A stretch of 64,000 nucleotides of DNA from a virus, in the IMG/VR virus record IMGVR_UViG_3300019889_000011; one strand, given 5' to 3'. The notes below the pieces were generated by a model, which was not told the origin of the DNA, ran no database searches, and worked only from the letters and a program-made list of their open reading frames with translations. Positions 16,137-16,754 of the stretch are shown here, piece after piece. The position numbers and the translations under genes are program-made. Position 1 is the first letter of the stretch; every line of letters starts with the position of its first letter.

Positions 16137-16754
16137 ATGTTTGCGGAAAGGAGAGAAAAACCTATCACACCAACGAAAACTACAAGCGACTCCAATTCGA
16201 AGAAGCATAAGTGCCCGCACTGCCCGCGATTATTTGTCAGCAAAACCGGTCTCGGAAGCCACCTCAGAAGTCACGGTATCCAAGGATCGGCAAAGTCAAC
16301 GGTGGCTGCAAGACTTGCAAAGGAGCAAGCTGCTCCCACATCTGCACCACAACCACCTGCTCCACTTCTAATCATCTGCCCCGATTGTCCTGAGAAGTTT
16401 CTGAATACCCGCATGCTTGGTCTTCATCGCAGGCACCATCACGGTGTCGTCAGCCCGACCGCTGACCTCAGAGCGTTGAAGAAGCAGCAGAAAGAACTTG
16501 CGGGGAAACCCTCAACTCCAGCCGAAAGGTCAGATCCGGTCAATGTCACGAAGCGCAGCAGTCTCAAACATAGCAACGCAGTCGAAGGTGGCAATCATGC
16601 CTCCCCCAACCCTTCGCTCGATCCCATCGCGTATGCCATCTGCATCGGTTCCCTCAAAGAGTTCTGCCGCCATTTTGCGGAAGAGCATGATGTCCCTACG
16701 CGCCAATTCACCCGGCAATGCGCTGAGTTATTTTACCGTCAGACGCTTCGGTAG
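16137..16754 (+). CDS. C2H2 zinc-finger protein (two classical fingers)
   Basis: HKCPHCPRLFVSKTGLGSHLRSH and ICPDCPEKFLNTRMLGLHRRHH both fit C-x2-C-x12-H-x3/4-H. Confidence 0.55.
   Translation: MFAERREKPITPTKTTSDSNSKKHKCPHCPRLFVSKTGLGSHLRSHGIQGSAKSTVAARLAKEQAAPTSAPQPPAPLLIICPDCPEKFLNTRMLGLHRRHHHGVVSPTADLRALKKQQKELAGKPSTPAERSDPVNVTKRSSLKHSNAVEGGNHASPNPSLDPIAYAICIGSLKEFCRHFAEEHDVPTRQFTRQCAELFYRQTLR

Follow-up and report, generated by a model that had tools for sequence, protein, structure and literature searches.

The DNA examined here, a stretch of 64,000 nucleotides from IMG/VR virus record IMGVR_UViG_3300019889_000011 (hereafter, the window), carries three genes for zinc-finger proteins, which we designate genes A, B, and C (Table 1). 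The window is that of a temperate, tailed, siphovirus-like phage. A first reading, made from the letters of the DNA (the sequence-only reading), had called these three open reading frames (ORFs), and all of them proved to be real genes. It had also assigned two classical C2H2 fingers to gene A, three C2HC fingers to gene B, and one to gene C, all with Phe/Leu core positions; both gene A fingers match C-x2-C-x3-F-x5-L-x2-H-x3-H exactly, and a motif scan recovered the C2HC fingers in the numbers given. The C-x12-H spacing that it proposed throughout holds for gene A but not for genes B and C, in which all four finger units read C-x2-C-x11-H-x3-C.

A six-frame regular-expression scan of the window found 6 strict finger motifs, versus a mean of 0.06 and a maximum of 1 in 200 codon-shuffled windows. 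Gene A has 8 diverged homologs with conserved fingers. HMMER, run exhaustively against 1.84 billion representative proteins, returned 58 relatives of gene B, whose GTG start has an AAGGAG site 8 nucleotides upstream and whose GC content at third codon positions (GC3, 0.72) resembles that of the rest of the phage. Gene C is joined to both adjacent genes by ATGA start/stop overlaps. We therefore find it hardly credible that the motifs are chance Cys/His patterns in noncoding or miscalled ORFs. The codon-usage scores of genes A and B are indeed poor (under a model trained on large phage genes), and a word-indexed protein search matched B and C to themselves only, but the motif excess, the conserved homologs of A and of B/C, the conserved synteny, the coupling of gene C to its neighbors, and the confident structure predictions for the fingers all run the other way, and the homolog and synteny data rule the chance reading out. 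No significant PHROGs family was found for A, B, or C, tblastn gave no match for gene B among deposited phages, and a search with trimmed alignments found no viral loci related to gene B.

Table 1. Positions of the zinc-finger genes and of the other features described in the window
Feature	Position	Strand	Details
Gene A	16137-16754	+	205 residues; two classical C2H2 fingers and conserved C-terminal domain
Gene A finger 1	16212-16274	+	CPHCPRLFVSKTGLGSHLRSH
Gene A finger 2	16377-16439	+	CPDCPEKFLNTRMLGLHRRHH
Gene A C-terminal domain	16617-16751	+	45 residues (LDPIAYA..GSLKEFCR..AEEH..P.R.FTRQCAELF)
Sigma-70-like promoter before gene A	16079-16107	+	TTGACG, 17 nucleotides, TACTAT
Near-palindrome after the promoter	16111-16126		CGAATTGTACATTTCG; over predicted transcription start
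Candidate small gene	16687-16884	+	65 residues; overlaps gene A 3' end in another frame; no Pfam family
Gene B	54767-55213	+	148 residues; N-terminal helix and three C2HC fingers
Gene B finger 1	54881-54940		CQFCKLPFGVRDMRKHLHVC
Gene B finger 2	54992-55051		CRYCSEPIARGERRTHTRNC
Gene B finger 3	55082-55141		CNYCGEPIASGTRREHKVRC
Terminator-like hairpin upstream of array	54611-54640	+	7 G-C pairs, then T-run
Tandem array	54653-54747	+	9-bp period; 10.3 units; core T[AGT]AGAA
Gene divergent from gene B	53987-54382	-	131-residue protein; no Pfam or PHROG hit
Gene after B, in the single-strand-annealing-protein position	55188-56327	+	phrog_3657 (unknown function)
Gene C	23077-23298	-	73 residues; N-terminal helix and one C2HC finger
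Gene C finger	23131-23190		CPYCERSFGARELRAHTPYC
12-mer copy beside attP-like region	24419-24430	+
12-mer copy, integrase/excisionase intergenic region	26200-26211	+	runs on as 2-3 units of the 9-bp repeat
attP-like region adjoining integrase	24340-24760		tRNA 3'-end-like fragment and arm-type repeats
Tyrosine integrase	24764-26086	-
Excisionase-like gene, divergent from integrase	26272-26496	+	PHROGs
Prohead protease S78	58145-58894	-	second head block
HK97-type capsid	58907-60091	-	second head block
Small-terminase-like gene	60558-61058	-	second head block

Gene A and its conserved C-terminal domain

The fingers of gene A are predicted to be of the eukaryotic beta-beta-alpha type and not zinc ribbons. 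More specifically, AlphaFold2 models strand-strand-helix units at residues 24-45 and 79-102 with a predicted local distance difference test (pLDDT) score of 80-90, and the top Protein Data Bank (PDB) matches returned by Foldseek are all classical fingers (CTCF/ZFAT), at weak E values of 9e-3 or above. Gene A passes Pfam zf-C2H2_4 (28.9 bits versus a cut-off of 27), in agreement with the zf-C2H2 relationship proposed from the sequence, and lies below the cut-off of PF00096 (18.7 versus 25.2 bits). When the profile of its family was compared with the PDB, classical fingers matched over E values of 3e-19 to 1e-7, with Aart at 2.8e-19, the consensus finger 1MEY at 4.7e-11, and CTCF at 4.7e-9. The two fingers are separated by a linker of ~35 residues that is of low confidence in the prediction. 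Gene A has no TGEKP-type linkers and carries H-G-[IV]-x-G after each finger instead; TGEKP-like linkers are typical of large eukaryotic arrays and are not required for the domain.

The gene A family is rare. Its members are 134-277 residues long (155-277 for full-length ones) and carry one to three fingers, with the consensuses CPxCPxxFxxKTGLGSHLRxxHGI and CPECxxxFxNAAxLGxHRRxxHGV; the finger pattern is kept in those homologs that cover the finger regions. Finger sequences vary within the family (35-55% identity), and the C-terminal block (consensus LDPIAYALxxGSLKEFCRxxAEEHGIPxREFTRQCAELFLRExRR) is its most conserved part, with a mean column identity of 84%. Such a combination would be expected of a protein in which specificity modules are attached to a shared effector domain. 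AlphaFold2 predicts three helices at the C-terminus (pLDDT ~65). The domain is novel, with no Pfam match and no PDB sequence hit at E ≤ 10. One member of the family, gp156 of Tunturi_5, comes from a cultured acidobacterial phage; it shares 29% identity with gene A over 89% of the latter (tblastn, E 6e-10) and passes both zf-C2H2 (33.9 versus 25.2 bits) and zf-C2H2_4. The homolog in locus L003 also passes zf-C2H2_4.

Gene A comes first at a divergent junction, where an 88-bp intergenic region (16049-16136) holds the promoter and near-palindrome listed in Table 1, and it heads a rightward block (16137-22023) in which ~8 co-oriented genes follow it. Its GC3 of 0.54 is the lowest among the 49 ORFs compared (0.57-0.83 for the others), which points to weak expression or recent acquisition. 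The gene A homologs of L001 and L003/L004 are divergent from RHH_1-like genes (19.9 and 19.6 bits, respectively, versus a cut-off of 20.5), and that of L001 stands alone on its strand. A search for operator motifs common to the regions upstream of gene A homologs gave nothing convincing.

We considered whether gene A encodes a CI-like lysogeny repressor that is paired with a Cro-like ribbon-helix-helix protein and in which C2H2 fingers replace the helix-turn-helix. The RHH_1-like neighbors of the homologs, the isolated gene in L001, the promoter with a near-palindrome over the predicted start, and the low GC3 would all suit such a protein, as would the temperate nature of the phage, with its integrase, excisionase-like gene, and attP-like region. 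In addition, the window yielded no canonical repressor: 20 further ORFs gave no match to helix-turn-helix or ribbon-helix-helix Pfam families. We nevertheless hold this explanation to be doubtful, since ~8 co-oriented genes follow gene A in the window with no ribbon-helix-helix partner, a homolog occurs in the jumbo phage Tunturi_5, which is reported to infect lytically, next to ParA-like and helicase genes, and the strong conservation of the C-terminal domain would be unusual in view of the diversification of immunity repressors.

The candidate small gene that overlaps the 3' end of gene A contains the motif C-x2-C-x18-19-H-x4-H (CAHCGDRPP...RWKWLAMHE). Counterparts of this ORF also lie 3' of the gene A homologs in L003 (7252-7599) and L006 (5915-6262), and the three share the conserved tail CxHCGxxPP...RW[KR]WLAMHE..H[HN]RP. 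Based on this motif, the product may be a fourth zinc-binding protein.

Genes B and C and the 9-bp repeat array

Genes B and C are paralogs, as gene C aligns with the N-terminal part of gene B over the N-terminal helix (IDLSRVPSSELAREMSRR in gene B) and the finger (BLASTP, E 2e-7). Among their relatives, two Cys and the His ligand are invariant in both alignments, and the final Cys is invariant in the alignment of 15 sequences and near-invariant in that of 17. The commonest relatives are proteins of 73-154 residues with a helix IDLSxIPSSELARExxRR, one finger CxFCxLPFGxRxMRxHxxxCxxNP, and a basic tail. Gene C scores below the zf-C2HC_2 cut-off (20.3 versus 27 bits), and the best Pfam matches of gene B, zf-C2HC5 (24.1 versus 25.8) and CEP104_ZnF (22.1 versus 27.4), are likewise below theirs. 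Two relatives, P0018 (27.6 bits) and P0025 (35.4 bits), pass the zf-C2HC_2 cut-off of 27, so that B and C are tied to this family through transitive homology. The AlphaFold2 model of gene B (mean pLDDT 84.7) consists of the N-terminal helix and three hairpin-plus-helix units, for which TRAF6, CTCF, and the CEP104 finger array are the best fold matches in the PDB, although weak (E 9e-3 to 4e-2). The profile of the gene B family matched a C2HC/C3H-type domain-containing protein (9y6s), FLN29, and TRAF4 in the PDB. According to these predictions, the B/C fingers are of the beta-beta-alpha C2HC type and related to zf-C2HC_2.

The B/C finger also occurs in other contexts. Some relatives carry it in C-terminal arrays of 4-8 units on proteins with homing-endonuclease-like N-termini (phrog_314, E 3e-8), and these arrays match phrog_27406, phrog_12324, and phrog_15137, all of which are annotated as endonuclease. 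The same relatives have a SegE_GIY-YIG match below the Pfam cut-off, and the profile of their N-terminal region gave no hit in the PDB; their GIY-YIG assignment thus rests on PHROG and sub-threshold Pfam hits. Other relatives are eukaryotic-looking proteins with RING domains or C2H2 arrays.

The three genes had been proposed to form a single finger family. Profile-profile comparison of A with B/C (hhalign probability 40%) detected the generic finger pattern only, and we therefore assign them to two families in this phage, with B and C as the paralogs. Ros/MucR, which had been suggested for comparison, did not fit either, as none of the three proteins gave a ROS_MUCR hit at E ≤ 10. The beta-beta-alpha fold fared better: the models of A and B show hairpin-plus-helix units and not ribbons or treble clefs, and ligands and spacing are kept in homologs, so neither of the two findings that the sequence-only reading had named as fatal to it, an unrelated fold or unconserved ligands or spacing, was made.

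Gene C lies downstream of the integrase gene on the same strand. Translationally coupled downstream of it is a further gene (22703-23080, minus strand), whose product begins MKKLLSSTIATLLFTLFAVSSLRA and looks like a signal-peptide-bearing secreted protein or lipoprotein; given its place in the integrase-proximal block, it could be a lysogenic-conversion gene.

The position of gene B is conserved. A B-family gene is the first rightward gene in all six loci where upstream DNA was read (the window, L005, L009, L010, L012, and L013); it is preceded there by a conserved intergenic region of 350-450 bp (54383-54766 in the window) and is divergent from a conserved gene of ~106-134 residues. In the window, the latter encodes the 131-residue protein, whose counterparts in L005 (428-817), L010 (3238-3642), and L012 (1407-1727) are always divergent from the B-family gene as well. 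In the 4 contigs with readable downstream genes, the B-family gene is followed by genes for a single-strand-annealing protein, a PDDEXK exonuclease, and an SbcC-like ATPase. The annealing protein of L012 (2585-3670) is a RecT and its window counterpart is of another type; the two have only the C-terminal ~70 residues in common (39% identity), which suggests that the core of the annealing protein was swapped and a common partner-binding tail kept.

Six diverged phages (the window, L005 at 818-1080, L009, L010, L012, and L013) share a strongly conserved leader part of the intergenic region (54383-54640 in the window). Its conserved blocks are TCGCCGATGAGTGCAGCCTGTGGAA..GCTGCGCGG, a TATAGT/TATATT element matching a leftward sigma-70-like promoter, and TTTGCACC...GTGTTAGT, after which comes the terminator-like hairpin. 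The leader, which has no Rfam match, may act as a small RNA or as a cis-regulatory RNA.

Between the hairpin and gene B lies the tandem array, which reaches the ribosome-binding site of the gene. As the sequence-only reading had it, gene B is the first gene of its operon and directly follows the repeats; gene A likewise heads a divergent junction. The further motif copies that it had listed at 24419 and 26200 are exact 12-mers of the array (ATAAGAAGCATT), giving three copies in the window versus 0.00 expected, and an inverted relative of the 12-mer lies at 26102-26113 in the same integrase/excisionase region as the 26200 copy.

One explanation of the array is that it acts as RNA in the 5' untranslated region of gene B, the C2HC protein binding UAAGAA/UGAGAA units and thereby controlling translation or termination, for which TRAP and HutP, which act on repeated RNA triplets, would be models. 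The extension of the array to the ribosome-binding site, the upstream hairpin and conserved leader, and the failure to detect a sigma-70-like rightward promoter inside or just before the array are in keeping with this, but the 12-mers at 24419 and 26200 lie between genes, in a DNA context, close to attP and the integrase/excisionase genes, and no Rfam family matches. We regard an RNA role as very improbable.

The array was then compared among the six B-family loci, three of which have one. The near-identical contigs L005 and L008, which represent one related phage, encode a three-finger homolog 72% identical to gene B and carry a 6-unit array with the same core as that of the window. L013 has a single-finger homolog and a period-9 array (z 4.0) with a different unit, TTGCACAAG, despite a nearly identical finger 1. 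The lag-9 periodicity is weak or absent before the genes in L009, L010 (one finger), and L012 (two fingers), the last two of which lack an array. Array presence does not track finger number, and we rejected the simple scheme in which three fingers of 3 bp each account for a 9-bp repeat, because single-finger L013 has an array and two-finger L012 has none.

The period of the array is not explained by the number of fingers; its binder could be another protein, and the 131-residue protein is an alternative candidate. In a rival account, B and C are not transcription factors: their fingers would serve in protein interaction or DNA-end binding, working with or protecting the adjacent recombination module (in a Gam-like or accessory role) or capturing a host protein, and the array would be bound by something else, such as the divergent 131-residue protein. 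The strict synteny with annealing protein, PDDEXK exonuclease, and SbcC-like genes favors it, as does the fact that TRAF6 and CEP104, whose fingers mediate protein contacts, are among the nearest solved structures. The residues of the finger helix (R-x-M-R-x-H) are, moreover, conserved throughout the family, and neither the presence nor the unit sequence of the array follows the fingers. On the other side, the same finger type is arrayed on homing-endonuclease-like proteins, where DNA binding is expected; the basic tails (NPRRR...) suit a regulator, as does the placing of the gene first behind a long stretch of conserved control DNA; and the two phages with three-finger versions have a conserved array core in common. 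On balance, we consider this account, with its accessory role and other binder, rather unlikely.

Zinc fingers as candidate phage regulators

We propose, tentatively and with slightly less than even confidence, that these two unrelated families of beta-beta-alpha finger proteins are sequence-specific nucleic-acid-binding regulators. In gene A, the variable fingers would read DNA, and the C-terminal domain would oligomerize or contact a conserved partner, e.g., RNA polymerase; the gene itself heads an operon that has a promoter of its own. Gene B, always first in the early recombination operon, would bind the T[AGT]AGAA repeats in its own leader, in the integrase/excisionase control region, and beside attP, and could in this way link early transcription with integration and excision. 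The single-finger paralog, gene C, would be expressed with the integrase block. DNA binding by B and C is argued from the finger they share with the homing-endonuclease-like arrays, from their basic tails, and from the repeat sites at the leader, integrase, and attP. The layout of A and B fits that of a switch-type first gene at a divergent junction, with a promoter and near-palindrome in the case of A and a 9-bp array in that of B, and gene B may be the switch protein acting on the array. In a bolder version, a group of temperate phages of soil Acidobacteriota would run its lysis-lysogeny decision on eukaryote-type zinc fingers in place of helix-turn-helix repressors, with A, through its new effector domain, as the switch repressor or activator, and with B coating the array and, through the single site copies at the integrase/excisionase region and attP, tying expression of the early recombination operon to integration and excision; this seems to us unlikely.

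Several observations weigh against a regulatory role. The fold-search E values are weak (9e-3 or above), and AlphaFold2 confidence is low outside the fingers of gene A (mean pLDDT 60). In the window, A is divergent from a gene whose product is not of the ribbon-helix-helix type, and the Tunturi_5 homolog is located between ParA-like and helicase genes instead of in a lysogeny switch. Near gene B, no rightward promoter of the sigma-70-like kind turned up, whether within the array or immediately ahead of it. To these must be added the different repeat unit in L013, the weak or absent periodicity in L009, L010, and L012, the mismatch between array period and finger number, the family-wide conservation, and not variation, of helix residues in the C2HC fingers, and the protein-interaction fingers (TRAF6, CEP104) that are the closest solved folds of the C2HC type.

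The setting of these genes is otherwise that of a phage whose host is probably a soil member of the Acidobacteriota: relatives of gene A lead to this phylum through a contig from a Pyrinomonadaceae metagenome-assembled genome and through the cultured Tunturiibacter phage Tunturi_5. The window encodes a large terminase, portal, major head protein, tape measure, and tail fibre, together with DnaB, an SbcC-like ATPase, a PDDEXK nuclease, and a ParB-methyltransferase, as its structural and replication genes. The excisionase-like gene, recognized through PHROGs, is the sole helix-turn-helix-type protein recognized in it. In the attP-like region, the tRNA 3'-end-like fragment (at ~24560-24610, terminating in GGGCGCACCA) is flanked by direct repeats of GTCAGGAACCG, three copies at 24356-24390 and 2-3 more at 24678-24750; ARAGORN found no complete tRNA there. 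The integrase, the excisionase-like gene, and this region together indicate that the phage is non-integrated in this assembly. Megablast of 25 kb of the window found no deposited phage with nucleotide similarity, and the whole window contains no Rfam family.

Besides the main terminase/portal/capsid module at 43-48.5 kb, a second head-morphogenesis block occupies 58145-63941 on the opposite (minus) strand, where related phage L005 has early genes alone. It may represent a second element or an insertion, either satellite-like or phage-in-phage.

If A and B are regulators, they would offer a compact natural zinc-finger regulator that functions in bacteria with a defined repeat operator, data on beta-beta-alpha fingers beyond eukaryotes, and a starting point for the study of gene regulation in phages of Acidobacteriota, a soil phylum that is dominant but poorly studied. 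If they are merely accessory DNA- or protein-binding factors, the result would be a useful annotation of two uncharacterized phage families.

Relation to known zinc-finger and switch proteins

Classical zinc fingers are the commonest DNA-binding domain of eukaryotes and are nearly absent from bacterial regulation. They have been put at ~0.003% of bacterial genes (PMC3541406). The sequence-only reading had held classical fingers to be rare in bacteria and a phage that uses them as early regulators to be unusual. In phages they are indeed rare, but fingers of this kind have already been annotated in Tunturi_5 (gp156), in Microbacterium phages, and in uncultured Caudovirales in BFVD. Our literature search returned no published bacteriophage regulator built on classical zinc fingers, no phage C2H2 repressor, and nothing on C2HC fingers in GIY-YIG enzymes. 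What is known already comprises the finger folds, classical fingers in archaeal viruses, and C2H2 annotations in some bacteriophages; what is new are two uncharacterized phage families with distinctive architectures, conserved operon-head positions, and associated repeat sites, for none of which the literature searched gave a functional description.

Gene A shares its ligand pattern, profile hits, and predicted fold with the classical C2H2 proteins (PF00096/PF13894; TFIIIA, Zif268, and CTCF). Unlike them, it has two fingers only, a linker of ~35 residues, and a novel C-terminal fusion, and it is encoded by a phage. Its helix motif L-G-[SG]-H is, we presume, reminiscent of the QALGGH fingers of plants. 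The closest parallel is Tunturi_5 gp156 (PP885688.1, annotated as 'zinc-finger domain protein'), which has two C2H2 fingers, a long linker, a related C-terminal domain, and an acidobacterial host in common with gene A; it differs in that its C-terminal domain has diverged and its gene lies between ParA-like and helicase genes, and it is itself uncharacterized. Tunturi_5 is a 309-kb jumbo myovirus, reported as lytic, and gp156 is not discussed in that report (PMC11924767). A precedent for classical fingers in viruses of prokaryotes is provided by AFV1p06, a small eukaryote-type finger protein of an archaeal virus that binds DNA and has been proposed to regulate transcription, and for whose family no bacterial homologs were reported (PMC3541406); we saw no sequence relationship between it and A, B, or C.

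Among bacterial proteins, Ros/MucR (PF05443) are C2H2-type zinc-binding DNA regulators, from which A, B, and C differ in their x12 or x11 spacing; Ros has C-x2-C-x9-H-x3-4-H within a larger beta-beta-beta-alpha-alpha domain. The spacing of B and C is instead that of zf-C2HC_2 (PF13913), the CEP104 array (5LPI), and TRAF-type fingers, and CEP104_ZnF, TRAF6, TRAF4, and FLN29 are among their best sequence and fold matches; CEP104 and TRAF-type fingers are known in eukaryotes for protein-protein contacts. In the phage proteins, this unit is accompanied by a conserved N-terminal helix and a basic 'NPxRR' tail. The modular DNA-binding domains of phage homing endonucleases (GIY-YIG/Seg-like) are a further parallel, in that proteins with homing-endonuclease-like N-termini carry relatives of the B/C finger in C-terminal arrays; B and C have no nuclease domain.

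Finally, the layout around A and B is similar to that of lambda CI/Cro and P22 Arc/Mnt, in that small putative DNA-binding proteins come first at divergent, repeat-bearing regions, and gene A homologs are paired with ribbon-helix-helix-like genes in L001 and L003/L004. Compared with the lambda and P22 switches, a zinc finger would take the place of the helix-turn-helix or ribbon-helix-helix, and a 9-bp tandem array that of the 2-3 palindromes.

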